From Desulfobacterales bacterium (lineage in GTDB: Bacteria > Desulfobacterota > UBA8473), in the NCBI GenBank assembly GCA_016209225.1, contig JACQWO010000092.1, positions 24,511 through 88,510 on the forward strand: DNA of 64,000 bases. Direction: 5' to 3'. Positions 5,736 through 17,656 of this stretch are shown one piece after another. The translations under genes were made by a program, and so were the position numbers. The notes under the pieces are model-generated. The model was not told the origin of the DNA. It saw only the letters and a list, made by a program, of their open reading frames with translations, and did no database searches. Numbering within the stretch: the first letter of the stretch is position 1; each line of letters opens with the position of its first letter.

Positions 5736-7028
5736 TTACGTCCAATTAGCCACTCCATGGGGATGAACATAATCAACAACCTTCTGCATCCTGAGGGGCT
5801 TTCTCTTTGGAAACGAGAGTTTCGTACCTCTGGCGATAACTACCACCCCTCCGTCACTCACAAAAAAGCGCTTCCTATCATCTTCCAGGTCATAGCCTAT
5901 TTCTGTCCCCTGAGGCACCTTTACTCCTTTGTCTATGATGGCCCTCCTGATCTTAGAATATCTGCCAACCTCAACACCTTCCATCAGGACGGATTCCCTG
6001 ATATCAGCGTAGCTGTTAACACGAACCAGTGGAGAGAGAACAGAGTTCTGCACCCTTCCACCACTGATTATACACCCCCCCGAAACTATAGAATCCAGGC
6101 AGGCACCCATCCTTCCCCCAGGATACTCCTGGGCAAAGACGGTCTTGGCAGGAGGATACTGGCCCTGATATGTACGTAGGGGCCAGTCAGTGTCATAAAG
6201 ATTGAACTTAGGGTCAGGCGCCACCAGTTCCATATTAGCATCAAAGTAGGCATCAATGGTGCCCACATCCCTCCAGTATTTGGAGTCTTTTTTATTCTCG
6301 TCCCTGAAGTTATAGGCAAAGACCCTGGCCCGGTGGATCATCGCAGGGATGATGTCTTTGCCGAAATCGTGGTGACTCTTCTCACAGGCATCCTCCTCAA
6401 GGGATTCCCTTAAAATATCATTGTTGAATATATACACACCCATATTGGCAAAGAGGGGTTGCTTGCCGTGGAGTGAACCCTCGATTTTGTCGGGCTTCTC
6501 CTCAAAACCGATTACCCTGCCTTCATCATTAACCTTCATGATGCCAAACCGAGAACTCACCTGTTGATCCACCTCTATGGTGGCTACAGTAGCATCAGCA
6601 CCCTTTTCTTTATGAAAGGCAAGCATCCTGGAATAGTCCATCTTATAAATATGGTCAGCAGAGAGGATTAGAAAATATCCGGGGTTTACCGTGTCGGCAA
6701 AGTATAGGTTTTGGTATATGCTATCGGCTGTTCCCTTGTACCAATCTCCGTTAATCCGCATCTGGGGAGGAATTGGGAATATATATTCGTCAAGTTCTGA
6801 ATCGAAGATACTCCAGCCCAACCTGAGATGCTGTTCCAGAGACAATGACTTGTATTGGGTGAGTACCGCAATCTTACGCACACCGGAATTGATGCAGTTG
6901 CTCAAGGTGAAGTCTACCAGGCGATATATGCCTCCAAAGGGCACTGCCGGTTTGGCCCTATCACGCGTTAATGGATAGAGCCGCTCACCCATCCCCCCTG
7001 CCATAATCATGGCCAAAACATCCCTCAT
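5736..7028 (-). CDS. glgC: Glucose-1-phosphate adenylyltransferase
   Basis: 430 aa; AMIMAGGMGERLYPLTRDRAKPAVPFGG N-terminus and left-handed beta-helix C-terminal region. Confidence 0.9.
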   Translation of the reverse strand: MRDVLAMIMAGGMGERLYPLTRDRAKPAVPFGGIYRLVDFTLSNCINSGVRKIAVLTQYKSLSLEQHLRLGWSIFDSELDEYIFPIPPQMRINGDWYKGTADSIYQNLYFADTVNPGYFLILSADHIYKMDYSRMLAFHKEKGADATVATIEVDQQVSSRFGIMKVNDEGRVIGFEEKPDKIEGSLHGKQPLFANMGVYIFNNDILRESLEEDACEKSHHDFGKDIIPAMIHRARVFAYNFRDENKKDSKYWRDVGTIDAYFDANMELVAPDPKFNLYDTDWPLRTYQGQYPPAKTVFAQEYPGGRMGACLDSIVSGGCIISGGRVQNSVLSPLVRVNSYADIRESVLMEGVEVGRYSKIRRAIIDKGVKVPQGTEIGYDLEDDRKRFFVSDGGVVVIARGTKLSFPKRKPLRMQKVVDYVHPHGVANWT

Positions 7029-7078
7029 GGCTAAAACCCCCTCCTTGTATTTCTCCCTTGTGTAAACTTCGTTTTCCT

Positions 7079-7402
7079 TTAAGTCCTTAAATGTTGGACA
7101 TCAGCCTCTATATCGGCTATTAGGTCTAACCCCAACATAGTGGCCAAATCCATGCATTCTTTTCTTAACCCCTTTACTCTTGAGGTAATGCTTTTGGTGA
7201 ACAGGTATCTCATGACAATAACCATCATGGCCATTGCCGGAGTATCCATCGTACCCACCTTTTCGAAGTGAAATTCAGCGATTTTTATCCTGGGGTGAAT
7301 CCCTTCCATGATACTCTCTTTAATAGGGAGGATATTGTTTCGGTTAAGGTCTCCAGATAGGTCTATCTGTGCAACCGTATTGTCTTCGGTTATACGCAGC
7401 AT
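7079..7402 (-). CDS. STAS domain protein (anti-sigma factor antagonist-like)
   Basis: 107 aa; its size and the IDLSGDL...ILPIKE pattern fit SpoIIAA-like STAS proteins. Confidence 0.5.
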   Translation of the reverse strand: MLRITEDNTVAQIDLSGDLNRNNILPIKESIMEGIHPRIKIAEFHFEKVGTMDTPAMAMMVIVMRYLFTKSITSRVKGLRKECMDLATMLGLDLIADIEADVQHLRT

Positions 7403-7426
7403 CTATTCTCCATCCTCGCTAAAAAA

Positions 7427-7639
7427 TCATTTCAGGACAGCTTTTCCATTATTGTTTATGGAAAGACACTCACTTTTCCATAAACACAAGTTCTCATAGC
7501 AGTCGTGCACTCTGCCTGTGGCGTAGCAGTCGATGTTATTTTCTGCTCGTTGAATTGCCCGGATCGTATCTGCCTTTGTCATTCCGGCTGTCTTTACACC
7601 CAGATCCTTAGCCATTCTTCTAACCTCGTTAAAGTTCAT
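7427..7639 (-). CDS. Small hypothetical protein with Rho_N/SAP-like N-terminal helix-hairpin and Cys-rich C-terminus
   Basis: 70 aa; MNFNEVRRMAKDLGVKTAGMTKADTIRAIQ resembles the Rho N-terminal domain; followed by CYATGRVHDCYENLC. Confidence 0.4.
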   Translation of the reverse strand: MNFNEVRRMAKDLGVKTAGMTKADTIRAIQRAENNIDCYATGRVHDCYENLCLWKSECLSINNNGKAVLK

Positions 7640-7686
7640 TTTGTCCCTCCTAAATATGAAATTTTAGACTTGGTTTCATCCTTTCA

Positions 7687-8028
7687 TCAAAAAGGTTGTC
7701 CCTTTAAAACCATATAGGCATATTCAGGCACATTCACCATTCCCAGATTTTTGAAGTTGCCTTCCTGCCCCGATGAAATCCCAAGTATCCTTATTGATTG
7801 AACCGTTTTTTTTAACTCCCGTACAACACTCGAAAGCAAAAAGGTGCCGAAGGTTGTATATTGGTCGATTTCTTTAAGGTCGATGGTCAGATGCTGACAG
7901 TGGGGAGGAAGGGAGTCGTTCAGGAAAGAATAGATATCGTAAACCGTTTTGTGACTGAGCTCTCCCTGAATCTGAATATAAGACTCTTTGCCTGAGTGTT
8001 TGAACAAAAAATTGACAGGGTTGTCCAT
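7687..8028 (-). CDS. STAS domain protein (second paralog)
   Basis: 113 aa; weak STAS-like pattern, adjacent to the other STAS gene. Confidence 0.45.
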   Translation of the reverse strand: MDNPVNFLFKHSGKESYIQIQGELSHKTVYDIYSFLNDSLPPHCQHLTIDLKEIDQYTTFGTFLLSSVVRELKKTVQSIRILGISSGQEGNFKNLGMVNVPEYAYMVLKGQPF

Positions 8029-8047
8029 CAGTTACCCATTTCTCACG

Positions 8048-8100
8048 AGAGCTTTGAAGAAGTCCCCTGAGAGCGAATTCATAAATTTTCAAAGCTCTCA
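8048..8100. repeat. 53-bp miniature deletion derivative of the GAGAGCTTTGAA-TIR MITE
   Basis: gagagctttgaagaagtcccctgagagcgaattcataaattttcaaagctctc is the two ends of the 199-bp element fused. Confidence 0.55.
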
Positions 8101-8145
8101 GGTTAAACAAAACTCCACAGGTAATTAAGAGTATACGCAATTTTC

Positions 8146-8162
8146 ATTCCAACTTTAAAAAG
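8146..8162 (-). promoter_or_regulatory. Candidate sigma-54 promoter (-24 TGG / -12 TTGC) about 120 nt upstream of the STAS gene
   Basis: Minus strand reads tTGGaatgaaaaTTGCg with correct GG-N10-GC spacing. Prediction only. Confidence 0.3.
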
Positions 8163-8273
8163 CCTGGATACGATACCTGAAGAAACCTACAACTAATCTT
8201 ATTGTCTCCTTCGGGGAATGGGAGAAAAACCCTCGCCTTCAGGCGAAGACTTCAGTTCGATCTTTTGCGCCGC

Positions 8274-8380
8274 AAGGGTTCGAGGGTTCGAGGATTCCAG
8301 GATTCAAGAGTGATGAAGAAAAGATTCTCCCTTGACCCCTTGACCCCTTGAACCCTCAAGCTATCGGCTTTAGCCGATAG
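8274..8380. repeat. REP-like imperfect palindrome plus perfect hairpin ctatcggctttagccgatag
   Basis: gggttcgagggttcgaggattccaggattcaag ... cccttgaccccttgaccccttgaaccctcaag. Related to the element at 1959-2033. Confidence 0.4.
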
Positions 8381-8580
8381 GAGTTGACTTCAGATCAGCC
8401 GTTTACTCTTCGATTATGGGGTATTTACCATAATTGCGGTGCGGTGAGTTTGGCTATCTATCCGTAATTTTTGGAGTTTATTGAAAAGAAAGGACTGCCC
8501 CATAAACCAGAAGAGTTATGGGTAAATCCCCATAAATAGATTGGGTAGGGCGGACATTTTTAAAGGTTTAAGGGGGGGAT

Positions 8581-8970
8581 TTAGAGGAATTCTTTCCTGT
8601 CAAGGCCATACTTGGTCAACTTCTCATAAAAGGTCTTATAATTCAATCCTGACTGCCTGGCTGCCTGGGTGATATTCCCCCTGTTTTTGGAGAGCACTGC
8701 CTTCAGGTATGCACTTTCCCATGCATGAATAAGCCCTTCTTTCATTTCTCTGAAGGGCATGCCGGTATCGAGGGGCAAAGGCAGGTTGGTTTGTCTGGAG
8801 AAGGGGCTTGCCTCGGATATGCGCGAAAAATCAAACCTTTGGATTGTCGGCCCCTTTTCTGTCACTACAGATTTTTCTATGACATTTTCCAGTTCCCTTA
8901 TATTTCCTGGCCAGTGGTACTGGAATAGTGAATTTAATGCCTCAGGGGAAAGATTTATTTCAGAATTTTT
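8581..8970 (-). pseudogene. 3' remnant of a sigma-54-dependent transcriptional activator (NtrC family): C-terminal end of the AAA+ domain plus Fis-type HTH only
   Basis: The open frame starts right after the lpdA stop with no start codon: LSPEALNSLFQYHWPGNIRELENVIEKSVV ... GNITQAARQSGLNYKTFYEKLTKYGL. The receiver domain and most of the AAA+ domain are absent. Confidence 0.75.
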
Positions 8971-8991
8971 TCAGAATTCCCCAAAATCATC

Positions 8992-10401
8992 TTAAAATAC
9001 ATGGATCGCCTTTCCATATACACTATGGGCGGCTTCCATCACGCTCTCAAACAGGGTAGGGTGGGCATGGATAGTGGCGCTCAACTCTTTTGCCGTTACA
9101 CCTAATTTAATGGTCAAAGCAATCTCATGGATCAGTTCCGTTGCAAGGGGCCCGATGATCTGACCACCCACAATCTTTTCTGTCCCCTTTTCCACCACCA
9201 ACTGGACTGACCCAACAGCCTGCCCCATGGCCATGGCTTTACCGGATGCCGAAAAGGGAAACCACCCTGTTTTAACCTCTACTCCGGATGCCCGTGCCCC
9301 ATCTGCTGTCAGACCGACACTGGCTATCTCAGGAGAGGTATAAACGCAACTGGGGATAACAGAATAATCAATTTTAGAGTCTATACCCAGGGCATTCTCA
9401 ACCGCTGCAATACCCTCAGCAGATGCCACATGAGCGAGTAGTATACCCCCGGTAACATCCCCAACGGCATAGATACCCTTGATATTTGTCTCCATCCTGT
9501 CATCCACCAATATATTCCCTCTCTCATCTGACTTAACCCCAAGCTGCGCCAACCCAATGCCTTTAGAGCTGGGGGTTCTTCCGATGGCTATAAGGAGTTT
9601 CTCCCCTGCAATCTCATCACCGTTGTCCAAAAGACAGGTAATACCCTCGTCACTGTAAGAGAGCACGTCTCTAACTTTGGTCTTTACAAGGATCTTAATT
9701 CCCCTTTTTCTCAGAATCTGTGTCATCTGCCTCGAAATCCTCTTATCCTCTCTGGGCAGAATCTGATCCATCATCTCAATCAGGGTAACCTTTACACCTA
9801 AGGCATTGAAGAAACAGGCAAATTCCAATCCAATTGCCCCTCCTCCGATAATGAGTACAGTCTCGGGTAATCTGTCCAGTCTGAGTGCCTGTCTACTCGT
9901 TAAAACCGCGGGTTGCTCAGGATTTACAAAGGGCAGAATGAGTGTTTTAGAGCCGGTTGCTATTACTACCTTTGTGGCTTCTATATCTTCAGCCCCGGAG
10001 GGGGATTCCACTCTGATCCTTGTTGGGGAGATTAAGGTTGCAGTACCCTTGATAAACCCAATACCCCTTTTCTTGAATATCCCGTGTATACCATTGCCCA
10101 GACCTTCTACAACCCGACCCTTTCGTTCCATAATCTTTCCGAGATCGGCTCGAACCTCGCCAACATAAATCCCAAAGTCTTCTGCTTCTTTTATAGAGGT
10201 AAAGAGTTCAGCGGATGCGAGAATGGCCTTGGTAGGGATACAGCCATGGTTGAGACAGGTACCTCCGATGGCATCCTTTTCTATAACAGTAACTTCGGCA
10301 CCTAACTGCGAAGCCCTAATGGCTCCTACATAACCACCAGGACCGGAACCGATTATAACGATCTTTTCTTTGCTCAAAAACTCCACCTCCCTCCTATACA
10401 C
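8992..10401 (-). CDS. lpdA: Dihydrolipoyl dehydrogenase
   Basis: 469 aa; GSGPGGYVGAIRASQLG FAD motif, GGTCLNHGCIPTK redox-active disulfide, C-terminal HAHPTLxE dimerisation motif. Confidence 0.9.
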   Translation of the reverse strand: MYRREVEFLSKEKIVIIGSGPGGYVGAIRASQLGAEVTVIEKDAIGGTCLNHGCIPTKAILASAELFTSIKEAEDFGIYVGEVRADLGKIMERKGRVVEGLGNGIHGIFKKRGIGFIKGTATLISPTRIRVESPSGAEDIEATKVVIATGSKTLILPFVNPEQPAVLTSRQALRLDRLPETVLIIGGGAIGLEFACFFNALGVKVTLIEMMDQILPREDKRISRQMTQILRKRGIKILVKTKVRDVLSYSDEGITCLLDNGDEIAGEKLLIAIGRTPSSKGIGLAQLGVKSDERGNILVDDRMETNIKGIYAVGDVTGGILLAHVASAEGIAAVENALGIDSKIDYSVIPSCVYTSPEIASVGLTADGARASGVEVKTGWFPFSASGKAMAMGQAVGSVQLVVEKGTEKIVGGQIIGPLATELIHEIALTIKLGVTAKELSATIHAHPTLFESVMEAAHSVYGKAIHVF

Positions 10402-11591: not shown

Positions 11592-12389
11592 ATGACAAAC
11601 CATCAAGACGATCTAGCTAAATCAAACAAAAAGTCTGTTATAGCCGTTTCAGGGAAAGGTGGCACAGGAAAGACGGTCATATCCACAATCATCATAAAAC
11701 ACCTCAAGAAGAGGGACATGAAGATTCTGGCCATTGACGCTGATCCGGCAACGAGCCTCCCCCCTGCATTGGGTGTCAGCATTAAAAAGACCATAGGAGA
11801 CATAAGAGAGACACTTGTTAAAGGACCGGGAAGGGCTCCAACCTCCAATCTGCCTGTGGATCTTATGCTTGAATATCAGATACGGGATATCCTGGCGGAG
11901 ATACCAAAAATCTCGATCCTGGCCATTGGTCGCCCAGAGGGGCCTGGGTGTTACTGCCTTGTCAATGACATCCTAAGACATGCCATAGAAAAGTTCTCAG
12001 GCTATTATGATGTTACGATAATCGACTGTGAAGCAGGTCTGGAGCATCTGAGCAGGAGAACAACCAGAAGTGTTGATACCATGATCATAGTGACCGATGC
12101 CACTCAGAGGGGTATCAATACGGCAAGATTGATAAAAGAGCTGGCAGAGAGTCTGGAGATAAACTTCGACAAGATATGCGTTATCCTAAACAGGGCAACG
12201 GAGGAACAGGCAAGGGTATTCAGCGAGAGTGCATCAAAGTATGGAATAGAGCTGGCCGGGATAGTACCCTATGATCAGAATATTACAGAGTACGATCTTG
12301 ACGGGAAGCCGCTGATTGACCTGCCCGATGACTCCCCTGCTGTTATCGCGGTAGGAGAGATACTTCACAAACTAGAAATCCTCGTCTAG
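11592..12389 (+). CDS. cooC: CO dehydrogenase maturation factor CooC (MinD/ParA-family Ni-insertion ATPase)
   Basis: 265 aa; deviant Walker A GKGGTGKT and conserved CxC motif (GPGCYCLVN). Confidence 0.8.
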   Translation: MTNHQDDLAKSNKKSVIAVSGKGGTGKTVISTIIIKHLKKRDMKILAIDADPATSLPPALGVSIKKTIGDIRETLVKGPGRAPTSNLPVDLMLEYQIRDILAEIPKISILAIGRPEGPGCYCLVNDILRHAIEKFSGYYDVTIIDCEAGLEHLSRRTTRSVDTMIIVTDATQRGINTARLIKELAESLEINFDKICVILNRATEEQARVFSESASKYGIELAGIVPYDQNITEYDLDGKPLIDLPDDSPAVIAVGEILHKLEILV

Positions 12390-13196
12390 CACCTTGGATC
12401 TTACTGCCCCTTTTATCCAATTCTGGGATGCCTTGAGGGACCTCTCAGGGTCTTTAAGATTTTTCCATATCTCCTTATCTTTTGGGGTCCCCATAAATGG
12501 GCTCACAGTGCTTTCCAGTGAATTGACTACCCATATCATCATTTTAATATTTTCCTTTACTTTATCCATATTTTCCCTGATGAAGTTTACAAATGGGGCA
12601 GGGCTTTTCTCTGAAGGAACTATCACCACGTGTTCAACAGTTACCACCTTTAATGCCTCCAGAATTTCAGACACAAATACAATAGATGGAAACATAAAGA
12701 GCTGGAGTTCATTGTTGTCTTTAACTGCCCTAATGGTTTTGCTGGCGCCTGGTATTCCTGGCTGAACATCCGATACCTTATATCCAGACCTGTACATCAA
12801 ATCCTTTACTGCATCTTCTGCTATTTGGGAAACCATAGGGAACCGCAAATTGGCCAGACGTTTAAATCCCCTTTCCAGTTCATCGGGCATGTACTTGTGA
12901 GTGGGCGGGGTGTAAAACACCTCTCCCAGATAGTTGAGCTGTACATGCATATCAGGAGAGAAGACAGAGAGGCGAATCTTTCCTGTTATTCCTTCAAAGA
13001 TCATCTGTTTTACGTCACCCTCCAGTAGTTTTTCCAACCCCTTTTTATCATCCTCAGTCAGACTGTCCACTTCCTGATCTATCTTCCACATCAATTCTTC
13101 AGCGGATACTGCCCTGTACTTCATAAGGTAACTCGATATCTTCCCCAAAACCTGTGGTAATAAACTCTCCATTTTAAGAATCCTCCGTTCCTCCAA
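12372..13196 (-). CDS. Hypothetical protein (TTG start); possibly the 3' part of a frameshifted larger gene
   Basis: 274 aa with no recognisable motif. Overlaps the next ORF by 76 nt in another frame. Confidence 0.45.
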   Translation of the reverse strand: MEERRILKMESLLPQVLGKISSYLMKYRAVSAEELMWKIDQEVDSLTEDDKKGLEKLLEGDVKQMIFEGITGKIRLSVFSPDMHVQLNYLGEVFYTPPTHKYMPDELERGFKRLANLRFPMVSQIAEDAVKDLMYRSGYKVSDVQPGIPGASKTIRAVKDNNELQLFMFPSIVFVSEILEALKVVTVEHVVIVPSEKSPAPFVNFIRENMDKVKENIKMMIWVVNSLESTVSPFMGTPKDKEIWKNLKDPERSLKASQNWIKGAVRSKVLDEDF

Positions 13197-13549
13197 ATTT
13201 GTCCTTTACATATTAATAGAATACCTCTGCCAAGCCCCCGTATTAAGACACAAAATCGATGGTAATAACTATCTTTCTCCTTAGAAAGGTCAAATCCTTC
13301 GACTTCTTCCCTTATCATCTTCAAAAGAACATCCCCGAGGGTTGCCTCACTTCTTATCTCAGGGGCCCTTCCCAGAAGAAGCCTAAAACCTTTTACTCCC
13401 TGGATGCTATCCTTTATTAAGGCATATGCCTGGATATTGAAAAAGGCAGTGGCGATGTCGAATTGTGTATTGGGAATCTCCTCAAGGACACTGTTAAGGA
13501 AAGTGGATAGCTTTATGTCGCTATTATCAATGATTTTCTTTGGTATCAT
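13121..13549 (-). CDS. Hypothetical protein. The N-terminal ~95 aa resemble the first strand-helix unit of a PLD-like nuclease; the C-terminal ~45 aa look like out-of-frame read-through
   Basis: QFDIATAFFNIQAYALIKDSIQGVKGFRLLLG fits the PLD-family N-terminal pattern, but no HxK motif follows. Confidence 0.3.
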   Translation of the reverse strand: MIPKKIIDNSDIKLSTFLNSVLEEIPNTQFDIATAFFNIQAYALIKDSIQGVKGFRLLLGRAPEIRSEATLGDVLLKMIREEVEGFDLSKEKDSYYHRFCVLIRGLGRGILLICKGQIWRNGGFLKWRVYYHRFWGRYRVTL

Positions 13550-13971
13550 TTAATTTTCGTAAGAAAATCCTTCGCAGTTGAAACATTTACGATGCTCTTT
13601 ATCTTGTCAGTAAAGAAATGGGAATCACCAGTCAGAAAATAGTCAGGTTTCGCGTAAAGAACAGCGGCAAGGATCGGGATATCCTTCTTATGAGTTATCA
13701 GGGATGAAGCATCTTTCAATTTATGGTTGTACTTTGAGCGCGGGATGATTGAAATATCAGTCAATGCTTTTTCTGTTTCAGCAAGAGCGATTTCAAATGT
13801 CCTTTCTTTCAGATACTTGAGTTTCTTTTTTACTATCCCCCGTAACTCATCAACGACATCCTCACTAGTCACAAGGTCTATCTCGACCAAATCAAGAATC
13901 CTGGCTTCGTTTCCGTCAAAGAATATCCCTGAGAGCAGAATGTTTGTATCTACAAAGACCTTGTACCTCAT
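13546..13971 (-). CDS. PIN-domain toxin (VapC-like) of a type II TA pair
   Basis: 141 aa; MRYKVFVDTNILL with later acidic residues; 4-nt overlap with the upstream antitoxin gene. Confidence 0.8.
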   Translation of the reverse strand: MRYKVFVDTNILLSGIFFDGNEARILDLVEIDLVTSEDVVDELRGIVKKKLKYLKERTFEIALAETEKALTDISIIPRSKYNHKLKDASSLITHKKDIPILAAVLYAKPDYFLTGDSHFFTDKIKSIVNVSTAKDFLTKIK

Positions 13972-14183
13972 TTGCGCATCTTCTCAAGCTCTTTCAGCAT
14001 CTGAGCCTCTGTTATGTCCTCCTTTTTCATCAGCCATTTCAGGAATGACCTGCTCTTCCGGGCATAAGCCTTTTTGAGCGCTGATACGACAGCCTCCGAT
14101 GCGTCAGAGAATACGCCGAGCTTTATCTCCTCGTTAATGTTACGGTAGATGTCATCCGGAATCTGTGCTACGATTTTAGGCAT
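13968..14183 (-). CDS. Antitoxin partner of the PIN toxin (small DNA-binding protein); start at internal Met
   Basis: MPKIVAQIPDDIYRNINEEIKLGVFSDASEAVVSALKKAY...; the track ORF extends to 14243 in the same frame. Confidence 0.55.
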   Translation of the reverse strand: MPKIVAQIPDDIYRNINEEIKLGVFSDASEAVVSALKKAYARKSRSFLKWLMKKEDITEAQMLKELEKMRK

Positions 14184-14427
14184 TTCACACCTCCATGATA
14201 TTTGAATAAACCAATGATAACATAAAGTTTTCTGTTTGCACATCTTAAACTCTTATTGTCTTGTCTGCCTTATGTTTCCGCTTTCATCAAGGTACAGATA
14301 AAGCATTTATCTCCTATGTCTTGCTTGCATGTTTCTCATAAATATCTATCTCTCAACAAGAACACATCGCCTCTTGAATTATAGATATCGCATATTTTGT
14401 TTGCGCTGTCTGTTGCGTAGGCATCAT

Positions 14428-15489
14428 TTAACTCAACACCTTGAAATTCCCCTGTCCCATAGGCGGTCTCATGCAGTAATAAACAACCATGTCAAAACTA
14501 AGAAGTTTTTTTATGTCTTCGAGTAGATGTTTAAAGCTATCGTTCATATATAAAATCATGTGATAGTTGGAAACTGGATGCCATTTCTCTTTTCTTTTAA
14601 TTGCAATAACACCAGCAACCTTCCGGGAAAAATCAGAGTCTCTAAATAATCCATCATTCTCTCTACACCAAAAATCCCTACTTTCAACAACTGATTCATA
14701 CTCTGTTCCGAAAACTGCATCACAGATGTCTATATCTTCTTTGTTATCGGCTTCCATAACTATTAGGTTGATATTTTGACGGTCTACTTCCCATTTAAAC
14801 GCCCCTGCTGCATTAAGTAGGCTTTCTTTTATCTGATCTCTGGCCAATCCAGTTAAGTTTACCATCTCCAAATCACCTGCATAACCAAGAGTCAGTTCAG
14901 ACAATTCTGCATTTACGGCTGACCGCAATCCAATTTTGGCTCTTTGATTGCTCTTACTTGTAAATAAAAAGCTTTTATCATCAATCGCCGACGTTGTTTT
15001 CTTTTTCATGAAGTCTATAAGCTCTGGCAGGCAGTCTTCTTTAAAATCATCGGACAACTTGCAACTGAAAAATTTGCCAACCTTAATTTCCTTCGCTTTC
15101 TCTATAATTTTCTGTATTAACTTGTCTTGCCTGTTCTCTCTTTCCAGCTTTTGCAAGTCTTTTATTTGTATCCAAAAGGTGATGTCGCCTATCTGAACTT
15201 TAAAATCCGGAGGGGACTGTAAGTCATCAGGCTCATAATTTATTGGGATTTGAGCACAGTGATGAGAAATCAACATAACAGCAAAATTATGCTCAGCAAT
15301 CGTTTCAAATATTTTTGTATGCTTACGGGCGTCAACAAGCCTTTTATTAAGTTTGCCCAATCCTCTTTGTTCAAGAAGCGCCATATTTACAGCAAGTTTT
15401 CTCACATCTTCATCTGAAGCTTCATATCTGGTAGCGTTAAATATTCGTCTTGCAATATTTACATAACCTTCCGTATGTTGCACCCTCAC
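14428..15489 (-). CDS. Hypothetical 353-aa protein with a PD-(D/E)xK-like motif; possible orphaned restriction endonuclease
   Basis: GTG start overlaps by GTGA the stop of the methyltransferase 3' remnant upstream. ETIAEHNF...PDFKVQIGDITFWIQIK fits E...PD...(Q)xK. Confidence 0.45.
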   Translation of the reverse strand: MRVQHTEGYVNIARRIFNATRYEASDEDVRKLAVNMALLEQRGLGKLNKRLVDARKHTKIFETIAEHNFAVMLISHHCAQIPINYEPDDLQSPPDFKVQIGDITFWIQIKDLQKLERENRQDKLIQKIIEKAKEIKVGKFFSCKLSDDFKEDCLPELIDFMKKKTTSAIDDKSFLFTSKSNQRAKIGLRSAVNAELSELTLGYAGDLEMVNLTGLARDQIKESLLNAAGAFKWEVDRQNINLIVMEADNKEDIDICDAVFGTEYESVVESRDFWCRENDGLFRDSDFSRKVAGVIAIKRKEKWHPVSNYHMILYMNDSFKHLLEDIKKLLSFDMVVYYCMRPPMGQGNFKVLS

Positions 15490-15650
15490 ACACTCCTTGC
15501 TTTCTCAAGGCGGTTCTTGACGAGTTAGCAGACGGACCAATAGACTTCATTTCTTTCGGCGTCGGTCAAGCCGAGAACGTCAAAGACTATATCATCAAGG
15601 GCCTTGCGGTCAGGAAGGGGATTGGGCGTTTGTTCGAGGATGGGACGGGT
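15490..15650 (-). pseudogene. 3' remnant (about 45 codons) of a DNA methyltransferase gene, copy 1, with an internal TAA
   Basis: Minus-strand translation RPILEQTPNPLPDRKALDDIVFDVLGLTDAERNEVYWSVC*LVKNRLEKARSV. The ...D.IVFD.LGLTxxERxEV tail is typical of N6-adenine DNA MTase C-termini. Confidence 0.5.
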
Positions 15651-15666
15651 AAAGTTGATGCTATGT

Positions 15667-15882
15667 TTATACCAGATCCTTAAGTTCATCAATCGTAATG
15701 CCTGCTTTTTTTATGATATTGTTAAGAGTTCCTTTCTTGATTTCCTTATGAAACGGAACAACTACCGATATGTTTTTCTCAAGATTGTGCATAAAGATAT
15801 GGCTTCCTCGCTGATGGTCAACGACAAAACCCTTCCGTCTCAATGCCTTGACAACATCTTTACCGGAGAATGTTTTACTCAA
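15667..15882 (-). CDS. hicA: HicA toxin (mRNA interferase)
   Basis: 71 aa; [27 protein letters not shown] is the canonical HicA motif. Confidence 0.85.
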
Positions 15883-16094
15883 AGAACCATCTCCACTTCT
15901 TTCAAAATTACATTGGGTCTTGATTTTATCTGATTCAGTTTTTCAAGCCCTTCAAGATAGGCATGTATAGCTTCTTTCGCATTCTCAATTGCTTCCTCTT
16001 CAGTTTCCCCTTGAGTAAAACAGCCATCAAGGGCGGGAACCGTCACATTAAAACCGCCTTCTTCAGCAGGCTCTAATATTATGTTGAATTTCAT
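15879..16094 (-). CDS. hicB: HicB antitoxin (UPF0150 family)
   Basis: 71 aa; [43 protein letters not shown]; 4-nt overlap with hicA. Confidence 0.85.
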
Positions 16095-16191
16095 AAAATA
16101 AACCTCCTTTCTGATTCATTATAACATGCATCTCTAATTACGAATTAAAAATTACAGGATTCCTAATTCGTAATTCCTAATTTTTAATTAA

Positions 16192-16345
16192 ATTGATTTT
16201 GCCTTCTCAAGCCTATTCTTCACCAACTCACAAACGGCCCAGTAGACTTCGTTCCGTTCAGATTCTGTCAAGCCGAGAACGTCAAATACTATATCATCAA
16301 GGGCCTTGCGGTCAGAAAGGGGGTTTGGGCGAATAAACAACAGGG
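16192..16345 (-). pseudogene. 3' remnant of a DNA methyltransferase gene, copy 2 (intact frame: ...RPNPLSDRKALDDIVFDVLGLTESERNEVYWAVCELVKNRLEKAKSI*)
   Basis: About 80% nucleotide identity to the copy at 15490-15650; no gene body upstream. Confidence 0.5.
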
Positions 16346-16545
16346 AATCAACCTATAGACAAACTAACACCTTTCAACCTATCAGTAAAGTATTTTTTAC
16401 TCTGCCCTTTCAGCTATCCAGCCCTTGAATTTTCAGCGGTTACGTCTTATATTAGATATATTATTGATTGCGTACCTAACTTTCAAAAGAGAGAAAATTC
16501 CATAAATGTTATTGACAACATCCTGCTATTTAAATTATCTATATA

Positions 16546-16745
16546 TAGAGAGCTTTGAAAAATTACCCCTTTTCGCTTCAGCATACATTTTTTGACCCAT
16601 CTAAGCTCGCTTCATTGAAAATTCACAAACTCACCCTTCGGGCTCAAGCATGTGAATTTTCTACATTACGCTCGCTAAGTTGGGTTCCCCAAAAAATCTA
16701 TGAATTCGCTCTCAGAGGTACTTCTTCAAAGCTCTCGGTAGGTTA
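16546..16745 (+). mobile_element. 199-bp GAGAGCTTTGAA-TIR MITE-like element, copy 2
   Basis: Lies directly upstream of the polyferredoxin-hdrA operon. The track ORF 16555-16836 is spurious. Confidence 0.7.
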
Positions 16746-16810
16746 TGATAAAGGTCTCAGAGAGTGCTGGTTTTTTCCCTGTTTAATAGAGCATTACTCC
16801 TGGAGATATT

Positions 16811-17656
16811 ATGATTGCTTTGAATACAAAAACTGAAACAGATGAAAAGACAGAGATTAAGCTGAAGCTGTATGTGGATGAGGTCTCCCTGGTTCTGAAT
16901 AAATTGGTTTGTATTAAATGCGATATATGTAAAACGGTTTGTCCCAAGGATGCTATCTCGGTGATACGGGATGAAAAAGAGGTCAGGATTGATATTGATG
17001 AGGGTAAATGTGTTCTGTGCGAGGTCTGCTCTCACTTCTGTCCGGTATCAGCGATTACTTTAACCCACAATAATGTTCCAAAGAGTATTCTTCTGGACAA
17101 CCAGGGGGTACTTTCATTTCCAAAGAGGATAGAGATAGATACCAGCAGATGTCCCAGTCACTGCTCTAAAAACCCTGAGGGAGAACACCGGTGGTGTCGC
17201 AAAAACGATGAAGTAATTGATAATACTTACGAAGACTGTCCCAAGTTCTGTTTTTCATGCGTTGAAAATTGTCCGAGAGACCTGATAGGGGTGGAAGGTG
17301 ATTCGGTAAAGCCCAATGAAGCCAGATGCCTTGGCTGTCCCCATTGCCAGGACAGTTGTGAATATGGTTCAATAAGCTTAACCCCTGTATTTTCTGGAGA
17401 GATAGGCATAGATAGCAAGCTCTGCCCTGAAGAATGTACCAGGTGCATAGACCTATGCCCGACAAAAGCGATTAGCAGAGAGGGGAAAGAAGTTGTTGTC
17501 AATGACAGATATTGCTCATTCTGTGGTGCATGTGTTAATATATGTGATAAAGAGGCAATCGACCTGAAAAGAACAGATGTGAAAGCGGAAGAGGGAGAGT
17601 TTTCGGCTGTCTGGTCAGATGCAGTGGACAAGTTAGTTGCTTCGCAACAAACTTGA
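16811..17656 (+). CDS. Polyferredoxin (multiple 4Fe-4S dicluster domains)
   Basis: 281 aa with about seven CxxCxxCxxxCP motifs. Confidence 0.8.
   Translation: MIALNTKTETDEKTEIKLKLYVDEVSLVLNKLVCIKCDICKTVCPKDAISVIRDEKEVRIDIDEGKCVLCEVCSHFCPVSAITLTHNNVPKSILLDNQGVLSFPKRIEIDTSRCPSHCSKNPEGEHRWCRKNDEVIDNTYEDCPKFCFSCVENCPRDLIGVEGDSVKPNEARCLGCPHCQDSCEYGSISLTPVFSGEIGIDSKLCPEECTRCIDLCPTKAISREGKEVVVNDRYCSFCGACVNICDKEAIDLKRTDVKAEEGEFSAVWSDAVDKLVASQQT

Follow-up and report, generated by a model that had tools for sequence, protein, structure and literature searches.

Probable remains of a methylase-helicase defence operon, with its embedded small genes kept, in a Desulfobacterales genome

Between positions 14428 and 16345 of a 64-kb window of a Desulfobacterales genome (contig JACQWO010000092.1), two short stretches that encode only the end of a DNA methyltransferase lie on either side of a hicBA toxin-antitoxin module, and one of them runs directly into the gene for a 353-aa protein that resembles PD-(D/E)xK nucleases. 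The window is the whole stretch that was analysed; coordinates are positions within it, and L-numbers denote comparison loci from other genomes. This arrangement raises the question of what stood at the site before, and why the end of a methyltransferase gene should be present twice where the gene itself is missing. A first-pass annotation, made from the sequence alone, had proposed that a toxin-antitoxin module was inserted into a restriction-modification system that was subsequently deleted, leaving its cognate endonuclease behind. Comparison with other genomes favors a somewhat different history: region 13243-16544 appears to be what remains of a two-gene restriction-modification-like defence operon, of which both large genes have been deleted and the small genes embedded between them have been kept. 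This explanation is assigned a probability of roughly 0.78 as a whole, that is, including the deletions, the surviving cargo, the origin of the methyltransferase ends, the recombination by which they would have spread, and the self-sufficiency of the 353-aa protein. All genes concerned lie on the minus strand (Table 1).

The operon in the window and in its intact relatives

The most direct evidence comes from L045 (QZJR01000036.1, Deltaproteobacteria bacterium SURF_34), which carries an intact system at the equivalent chromosomal site. The window is 92-93% identical to L045 on the Hdr/ferredoxin side (window 21748-16794) and 90-91% identical on the side of the DUF6834_C and CooC-like genes (window 13268-8964). 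Between these flanks L045 contains, in order, a 1232-aa methylase (6246-9944), four small genes (HigB-like, HTH-peptidase M78, UPF0175 and PIN-like), a 1047-aa PLD-SNF2 protein (12314-15457), and the DUF6834_C gene. Because L045 carries both large genes where the window has stubs only, the decay of a restriction-modification-like locus, as first proposed, can be seen directly. An intact orthologous methyltransferase pair is present in this relative, and its second member is the HKD-SNF2 helicase, not a 353-aa homologue. The first loss corresponds to L045 ~6191-9802, which extends from 55 nt upstream of the methylase ATG to about codon 1186. The statement that no methyltransferase body remains is likewise borne out, as none turned up in the 64-kb window when the N-terminal, middle and C-terminal portions of the L045 orthologue were used as tblastn queries; the remnants are gene fragments, and an S-adenosylmethionine-binding, catalytic (NPPY-type) domain is absent from the window. 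The rotting of a defence system is an ordinary process, yet the window provides a clean example of it, with both junctions readable against a near-identical intact relative.

Table 1. Features of the decayed locus and its immediate surroundings, in window coordinates
Feature	Positions	Strand	Basis or remark
DUF6834_C-domain gene, intact neighbour downstream of the system	12372..13172	-	Pfam 2.8e-12; probable true start 13172
Deletion junction 2 and last ~26 nt of helicase gene, out of frame	13243..13269	-	~2.8 kb missing relative to L045 ~12594-15430
First 93 codons of HKD(PLD)-SNF2 helicase-nuclease	13270..13549	-	87% identical to L045 12314-12593
Second toxin-antitoxin module, small antitoxin and 141-aa PIN toxin	13546..14243	-	PIN_2 5e-10; toxin 13971-13546
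Conserved non-coding 3' flank travelling with the 353-aa gene	14244..14427	-	Alignments beyond the stop codon in other loci
353-aa gene, embedded cargo, open and conserved	14428..15489	-	PD-(D/E)xK-like core
Tail copy 1, last 63 codons of a methyltransferase	15486..15677	-	Protein match 15677-15489, residues 2-64 of the 64-residue tail consensus
hicBA module, discrete ~460-bp unit	15667..16126	-	hicB 16094-15879, hicA 15882-15667; exactly between the tail copies
AT-rich ~61-nt spacer with 17-nt inverted repeat (16136-16152 / 16159-16175)	16127..16187	.	Separates the copy 2 stop from the leader of hicB
Tail copy 2, last ~47 codons and stop of an Eco57I-family N6-adenine methyltransferase	16188..16334	-	Protein match 16331-16191, residues 18-64
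Deletion junction 1, ~3.6 kb methyltransferase gene missing	16329..16349	-	Junction alignment against L045
Upstream (promoter/leader) region of the lost methyltransferase gene	16350..16544	-	84% identical to L045 5972-6167, just upstream of the methyltransferase start at 6246

The second junction is also found in L144-L146, where a single continuous 1250-nt alignment with the window runs across it at 90% identity. As the same deletion junction is shared, the helicase was already dead in the common ancestor of the window and these loci. L144-146 have the methylase tail, hicBA and the helicase stub, without tail copy 1, the 353-aa gene and the PIN pair, and this block may have been gained in the lineage of the window or lost in L144.

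Judged by sequence comparison, both remnants in the window are the C-termini of an Eco57I-family (gamma-class) N6-adenine DNA methyltransferase. The core sample consists of 80 GTDB loci that carry the methylase tail, collected by a genome scan with alignment of the tail matches; in about 40 of them the tail is the extreme C-terminus of an open reading frame (ORF) of 1067-1293 aa. Similarly, among the best 150 of ~1100 HMMER matches to the tail, 22 proteins of 1026-1300 aa carry it at their very end. The L045 methyltransferase matches the Eco57I (2.5e-34), MmeI_Mtase, N6_Mtase and M_Eco57I_C families of Pfam and the type IIG and DrmMI models of PADLOC, and has no sequence-level relative among the solved structures in the PDB. 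The methyltransferase origin proposed for the remnants therefore agrees with the ~1200-aa Eco57I-family proteins that end in this tail, and the remnants do not match a family of another kind. A word-indexed protein search with the 58-aa tail returned 125 matches from many phyla at 70-88% identity, all of them 43-101 aa long; this list of short proteins is a consequence of the search itself and of the abundance of fragments, not of biology. The idea that the tail is an independent micro-protein was considered and rejected, since HMMER and the genome loci place it at the end of ~1200-aa methylases, and it is further undercut by the short ORFs themselves, which differ in where they begin and contain stops or frameshifts (window copy 1, L144, L143).

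The methylase is nearly always found beside an HKD-SNF2 helicase across the 80 loci, in either gene order, the helicase being upstream and abutting or downstream after a gap of about 10 nt to 4.7 kb. This helicase is the true partner of the methyltransferase. In L045 it contains the Pfam domains PLDc_2, SNF2-rel_dom and Helicase_C and matches the PADLOC model "HKD+Snf2" at 8e-58, and the N-terminus left in the window shares 55-86% identity with helicases that follow the tail in 25+ loci. By analogy and domain content, the two proteins would form an ATP-dependent restriction-modification-like pair, in which the methylase (~1200 aa) would mark self DNA and the HKD nuclease on its SNF2 motor (~1050 aa) would attack unmarked DNA. 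The two-gene system is widespread, ranging from Aquificota and Thermotogota to DPANN archaea, and the last 64 residues of its methylase are far better conserved than the catalytic domain: in distant phyla the tail is ~80-90% identical and the catalytic part ~45%. Between close relatives (L045, L055, L057, L065, L069, L071, L078), identity is 75-85% over the N-terminal and catalytic parts of the methylase and 30-45% over the ~350 residues before the tail (67% in L069). In L055 the corresponding values are 84% for the N-terminal, 80% for the middle and 38% for the C-terminal part, with more than 80% for the tail. The hypervariable part looks like a replaced target-recognition region between conserved sequences, comparable to the swapping of specificity subunits in type I systems.

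Several small genes occupy the methylase-helicase gap in other genomes, namely HigB with HTH-M78, UPF0175 with PIN, DUF4258 with DUF2283, BrnT, DUF559, PemK and HicAB, and sometimes the 353-aa gene, all of them on the strand of the operon. L045, L057 and L138 are intact systems with such embedded cargo, and both hicBA and the 353-aa gene are also found elsewhere. The gap may thus be regarded as a landing pad, where small modules, mostly toxin-antitoxin pairs, would become embedded in operon orientation. In the genome of the window, the gap would have received hicBA, the 353-aa gene and the PIN pair, and two large deletions would then have removed both big genes. Comparable ghost loci, with cargo and tail fragments and neither methyltransferase nor helicase, are L089, L139/L140 and L144-146, and L085 is probably a further one. 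L089 has the order tail, 353-aa gene, tail, DUF4258/DUF2283, with housekeeping genes on both sides, and L139/L140, an arrangement found in at least 24 contigs, has its tails and PemK pairs placed between an ABC transporter and genes for cytochrome oxidase. At least four lineages have kept cargo after losing the host system, which is what a resistance of addiction modules to deletion would lead one to expect. The tail-like short "hypothetical" ORFs of many metagenome bins are probably such remnants, and recognising them as such is useful for annotation.

Embedded modules and the repeated methylase tail

Within 14000-17000 a single long repeat was found, a direct repeat of 130 nt that is 82% identical between 15497-15626 and 16199-16328, which is far beyond chance for a 3-kb region. 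Both copies read in coding sense on the minus strand as ...PNPL(P/S)DRKALDDIVFDVLGLT(DA/ES)ERNEVYW(S/A)VC(stop/E)LVKNRLEKA(R/K)S(V/I). The observation of two segments, about 80% identical, that code for the last codons of a methyltransferase is therefore correct, with ~47 codons in one and 63 in the other. The reading frame of copy 1 is interrupted by a TAA at 15527-15525, a position that encodes Glu in copy 2 and in all relatives. Over 130 nt, copy 2 matches the L045 tail at 85% identity, and its last four codons are altered (KSI-stop versus RSV-stop in relatives). A 50-aa ORF with a TTG start has been called at copy 2, and it is fortuitous, because the start codon and the promoter-proximal part of the gene were deleted.

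The hicBA module between the copies, recognised as such at first reading, is confirmed by Pfam and by its coordinates. HicA (71 aa) matches the full HicA_toxin model (1-58 of 58) at 1.4e-20, and HicB (71 aa) matches HicB_lk_antitox at 3.7e-13 over model positions 1-61 of 123. The HicA domain together with an adjoining co-oriented HicB-like gene, overlapping it by 4 nt, identifies a type II toxin-antitoxin module of the HicAB kind. Like other HicAB modules, it encodes a 71-aa HicA that fills the Pfam model, has the 4-nt overlap, and has more than 750 close homologues; in contrast to them, the antitoxin gene comes first in the window and HicB is short, without a recognisable DNA-binding extension. 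The unit is an inserted module with sharp borders, and the same borders are found in three other contexts. In L144-146 it is 90.7% identical and lies between tail and helicase start; in L143 it is 76% identical and lies between two tail copies, with the hicA-stop/tail junction as in the window; and in L147/148 it is 84.7% identical with no tail on either side. The spacer between copy 2 and the hicB leader is not present at the same junction in L144 and L143, where the tail stop directly abuts TATAATGAAT...AGGAGG-ATG(hicB); it looks like a tiny insertion. The second toxin-antitoxin module has a probable antitoxin start near 14180, and its PIN stop codon overlaps the helicase ATG. This module is 78% identical to L094 1784-2486 and L095 3562-4264, and there too tail fragments bound it.

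Of the two parts of the earlier proposal, that a toxin-antitoxin module was inserted and that the remnants are the two sides of the gene that it cut, the first has stood and the second has not. The copies overlap by 47 codons, so that they are not halves of one split gene, and they differ at 34 of 141 aligned bases (24%). These differences have the pattern of coding sequence under selection: 21 of the 34 are at third codon positions, the ratio of third to second positions is 21:3, and pN/pS is 0.20. Moreover, each copy has a closer relative in another genome than its partner copy in the window. As the differences are mostly synonymous and closer relatives are found elsewhere, the two copies diverged within functional genes and only afterwards came to lie in one locus. 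The resident methylase gene's own end is probably copy 2, whereas copy 1 would have come attached to the 353-aa gene, whose 5' flank is a tail in many genomes. Copy 1 and the 353-aa gene form one colinear block in L057, L085, L086, L095, L099 and others, and in about 17 loci, L003 and L106 included, the 353-aa gene is preceded by a recognisable junction of the form "tail end, ~12 nt, ATG"; at least 14 loci conserve the join between tail end and gene.

A simpler way to obtain direct repeats immediately flanking an insert would be local tandem duplication of one resident tail upon hicBA insertion, as a long target duplication, with the copies drifting apart as pseudogenes. Such an event appears to have happened recently in L143, where the tail copies around hicBA are 94-100% identical. 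In the window, however, the copies differ at 24% of sites, compared with about 8-10% where the flanks are set against the orthologue; a 21:3 excess of third over second positions or a pN/pS of 0.20 is not what neutral drift would produce; and many genomes show copy 1 in one line with the 353-aa gene, its closer relatives lying elsewhere. Simple in-place duplication was consequently rejected for the window on the divergence pattern, and it is very improbable as an explanation. L143 (MTOU01000044.1, 1359-9104) is itself another decaying system. Its methylase begins at about residue 645, next to a truncated DUF499 gene that was seen in no other locus, and a frameshift disrupts the methylase tail; the helicase is in two pieces, an N-terminal ORF of 68 aa and a remainder of 658 aa.

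Repeated tails are not confined to the window. Extra downstream copies were found in nine of the 80 GTDB loci and in several loci fetched for other reasons; L071 has four copies, and L138, L139 and L023 have three each. All copies have the same orientation, nearly all reach the 3' end of the gene, their starts are scattered, and modules lie between them. Around the hypervariable recognition domain and the variable cargo, well-conserved DNA is limited to the tail (~190 nt) and the 5' end of the helicase gene (~280 nt, with 77-90% identity between genomes), and these two would anchor homologous recombination when DNA of related systems comes in. Crossovers in the tail and in the helicase start would replace the cargo. 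Crossovers inside the tail could add a module that has a tail on each side, or such a module could loop out and re-enter by a single crossover, and either route would leave an extra tail copy. Homologous recombination at these two conserved stretches, tail and helicase 5' end, is the probable way in which modules pass from one related system to another.

A more specialised route would be that the tail is the recombination site of an integron-like cassette system with a dedicated site-specific recombinase, its coding appearance being secondary. This would fit the arrays of modules in the same orientation that are split by one repeat in L071, L138, L139, L023 and the window, the borders of hicBA that are sharp and reproducible in four contexts, and the nature of the cargo, as toxin-antitoxin pairs are typical of chromosomal integrons. 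Against it, the 3' end of the repeat is fixed but its 5' ends are scattered from residue 1 to residue 50, so there is no single crossover point; the substitutions follow the codon pattern, with the pN/pS of 0.20 between the window copies; and these two copies fold differently and are no more stable than shuffled sequences (z = +0.28 and -1.70). No Rfam family exceeds its threshold anywhere in the 64-kb window, and hicBA has no tail on either side in L147. An IntI-type integrase was not among the Pfam annotations of the neighbours in L138, L139, L143 and L144, and no dedicated search for one was made in the window. An attC-like or otherwise structured RNA or DNA element was rejected on the codon-type substitutions, the Rfam result and the fold z-scores, and a dedicated integron-like system appears to have little chance of being correct.

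The homologous recombination favored here might nevertheless produce something that resembles a cassette platform. It is conceivable, although we regard it as tentative and rather unlikely, that the ~190-nt methylase 3' end acts as a portable homology handle and makes the gap an integron-like cassette platform without a recombinase, from which cargo spreads and on which it outlives its host. In such a platform, a module between two tail copies could leave as a circle with one tail and enter any related methylase gene by a single crossover, or it could enter by a double crossover within the tail. If true, the platform would explain how toxin-antitoxin pairs and the 353-aa gene have spread across very distant bacteria and archaea, with addictive cargo leaving ghost loci behind. 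Both tail copies in the window contain the same promoter-like match on the minus strand (15586-15613 and 16288-16315), consisting of CTGACC, 16 nt and TATAGT, with TG upstream. If the tail did contain a promoter, this would account for the tail fragment that cargo keeps upstream. The match may mean nothing, as the scan of 13000-16900 for promoters and terminators gave sites no more numerous than in shuffled sequence.

The 353-aa protein as a putative self-sufficient nuclease

The 353-aa gene had been placed in the position expected of a cognate restriction endonuclease, because the stop of tail copy 1 overlaps its start. This GTGA overlap is real (TGA 15488-15486, GTG 15489-15487). The usual start of the family, ATG-GAA-GAT-TAT, reads ACG-GAA-GGT-TAT in the window (15474-15489), and because the usual ATG is ACG, translation must start at an upstream in-frame GTG, 9 or 15 nt upstream. 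From the sequence, the start would be GTG 15489 or, more plausibly, GTG 15483, which follows AAGGAG by 9 nt; the NCBI annotation gives a 351-aa version. The remnant of the gene in L138 likewise has ACG at the usual start position. Conservation does not end with the gene: window 14567-14274 aligns past the stop codon of the 353-aa gene in L091, L098, L101 and L113, and 14425-14277 is 82% identical to L078.

The family comprises 232 database relatives of 345-431 aa, with 48-72% identity among the aligned ones. The protein itself has no match in Pfam, NCBIfam, PADLOC or the sequences of the PDB. A phage or plasmid origin of its gene was considered and rejected, as no plasmid matches and the only PHROG match falls below threshold. 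The AlphaFold model (pLDDT 85.5, pTM 0.74) includes an N-terminal helical bundle and a core with the alpha-beta-beta-beta-alpha-beta order that defines the PD-(D/E)xK fold. The E...PD...QxK motif noticed at first reading is present and (nearly) invariant in 37 family members: in E66...P94-D95...Q108-x-K110, the residues E66, D95 and Q108 never vary, and K110 is kept in at least 90% of the sequences. In the model, helix 60-76 carries E66, strand 103-111 carries Q108-x-K110, and D95 adjoins strand 96-100. The third position of the putative catalytic motif is occupied by Gln and not by an acid; PD-(D/E)xK variants with Gln at that position exist in the superfamily. The fold predicted for the protein is nuclease-like, and not a confident fold of some other kind.

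Compared with characterized PD-(D/E)xK proteins, such as the CdiA-CT toxin of Burkholderia pseudomallei (4g6v), BsmI, NucC, SfsA and HamA, the 353-aa protein has Gln in place of the second acid (QxK). It further differs from PD-(D/E)xK nucleases by its additional N-terminal helical and C-terminal alpha/beta domains, and it has no sequence-level relative in the PDB, Pfam, NCBIfam, PADLOC or the PHROGs.

The suggestion that this putative nuclease is possibly inactive has found little support. The ORF in the window is open and keeps every residue that is invariant in the family, and pN/pS of the window copy against its relatives is 0.30-0.38, within the 0.26-0.44 found across the family; the one blemish is the ACG at the usual start.

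If the locus were a classical type II restriction-modification pair in decay, the 353-aa protein would be the cognate endonuclease of the lost methylase, now orphaned and inactive or silenced. The GTGA overlap and the PD-(D/E)xK-like core are what such a pair would show, the ACG start would be consistent with silencing, and in L057, L003 and L106 a 353-aa homologue directly follows a large methyltransferase, of two different families. The distribution of the gene argues otherwise. It is present in only two of the 80 tail-family systems, one of them a remnant, and the constant partner of the methylase is the HKD-SNF2 helicase, so that the gene does not occupy the position of a cognate endonuclease and does not co-occur consistently with a methyltransferase. 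Homologues are found in loci without any methylase within 8 kb (L089, L134, L135 and L137), standing by themselves among housekeeping genes in L134 and L137 and next to an AbiE pair in L135, and they are under purifying selection in loci without a methylase (L089, L085). An unregulated cognate endonuclease, moreover, should not outlast its methylase. A decayed type II pair is consequently a very unlikely explanation of the locus, and the 353-aa protein is most likely, as far as sequence can tell, a self-sufficient nuclease-type gene of defence or addiction. With more than 230 members that lack a family assignment, its family is a reasonable candidate for a stand-alone nuclease-type defence gene.

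In L003 (6559-17655) and L106, a PglX-like 1120-aa methylase with a different tail (...YELYGLTKEEIAIVEG) precedes the 353-aa homologue, which is followed by three genes (one SPL/DUF1848-like, one DUF3800) and a PLD-SNF2 helicase 31% identical to that of L045. A degenerate trace of the family-1 tail end lies upstream of the 353-aa gene in both loci and suggests that the gene was imported there from a tail-family system.

Several points weigh against the history proposed here. The occurrence of the 353-aa gene, in intact systems, directly after methylases of two families means that a functional tie to methylases may exist. Copy 2 and the L045 tail are 85% identical, whereas the flanks reach ~90%, so that the label "resident" is only probable for this copy. 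The recombination route is reconstructed from its end products only, and illegitimate recombination, tandem duplication with gene conversion, or an unrecognised site-specific process might leave similar patterns. It is domain content and analogy that suggest a part in restriction for the helicase-nuclease and any part in defence for the 353-aa protein. Finally, the arrangement in L144 may reflect gain of the block in the lineage of the window or its loss in L144.

Outside the operon, the DUF6834_C gene has 86% amino-acid identity to L045 15526-16326 and is present in L144 too, although it was found in only one of the 80 loci. With a convergent CooC/ParA-like ATPase gene it forms a conserved pair immediately downstream of the system in the window (11592-13196), L045 (15526-17112) and L144 (6606-8186). 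The left flank differs in L144, where Feo genes are found. Two database proteins with 100% identity, HY739_15165 and HY739_15170, place the window in a Desulfobacterales metagenome bin, and the Hdr-like and ferredoxin genes beside the locus are that bacterium's own.

Comparison with known systems

The closest described systems are Type-2 BR and class 1 DISARM. Type-2 BR systems combine a DUF499 ATPase, an N6-methyltransferase, an HKD-Swi2/Snf2 helicase and DUF3780 (NAR 2026, PMC12839542). The same study proposes that the methyltransferase and the HKD helicase act in a restriction-modification-like manner, with HKD as the primary effector (PMC12839542). The intact relatives of the window share with these systems an N6-methyltransferase and a helicase with an N-terminal HKD endonuclease, of which the window has stubs only. 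They differ in that the two genes abut in the complete genomes L016, L048 and L024, where there is no room for a third gene. DUF499 was considered as a third core gene, and no match was found in L001-L137 by tblastn, which is a weak test, as a single DUF499 fragment from L143 served as the query. The pair is not filed under Type-2 BR because no DUF499 was found with this one query.

Class 1 DISARM consists of the SNF2 helicase DrmD, the adenine methylase DrmMI, DrmA, DrmB and the PLD protein DrmC. DrmMI (3.3e-22) is among the best PADLOC matches of the methylase and DrmD (7.8e-49) among those of the helicase, and PLD chemistry is present in both kinds of system. In contrast to DISARM, the PLD domain is fused to the SNF2 helicase, a separate DrmC is absent, and DrmA and DrmB were not seen in the inspected loci.

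The displaced tails have a parallel in the orphan C-terminal cassettes of Rhs/CDI loci, which are displaced 3' fragments with a conserved piece and small genes, and which are explained by recombination in the conserved part. In both cases, displaced 3' fragments lie downstream of a large gene, each with a conserved piece that is followed by its own small gene or genes. The tails differ in that the cargo consists of separate genes and not of alternative C-terminal domains in the large protein, that conservation concerns the extreme end of the gene, and that the large protein is a methyltransferase.

Genes embedded in defence systems have been surveyed for Hma, BREX, DISARM and restriction-modification systems of type I, in which they have the same orientation as their host in 96.7% of cases (Payne et al. 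2024, 10.1101/2024.01.29.577857). As described there, extra co-oriented genes lie between the core methylase and helicase genes, are rich in defence and toxin functions, and are also found outside the host system, all of which applies to the cargo described here. The host, a pair of Eco57I-type methylase and HKD-SNF2 helicase, is not among the four systems surveyed; the cargo is mostly toxin-antitoxin pairs; and the host system of the window has been deleted. The fifth results section and the discussion of Payne et al. (10.1101/2024.01.29.577857) do not mention repeats of a methylase 3' end that separate modules. With respect to these parts of that survey, the locus belongs to an otherwise known kind of object, a defence system with embedded cargo that has here decayed, and the tail repeats between its modules are apparently an undescribed detail, one that hints at the mechanics by which genes become embedded.

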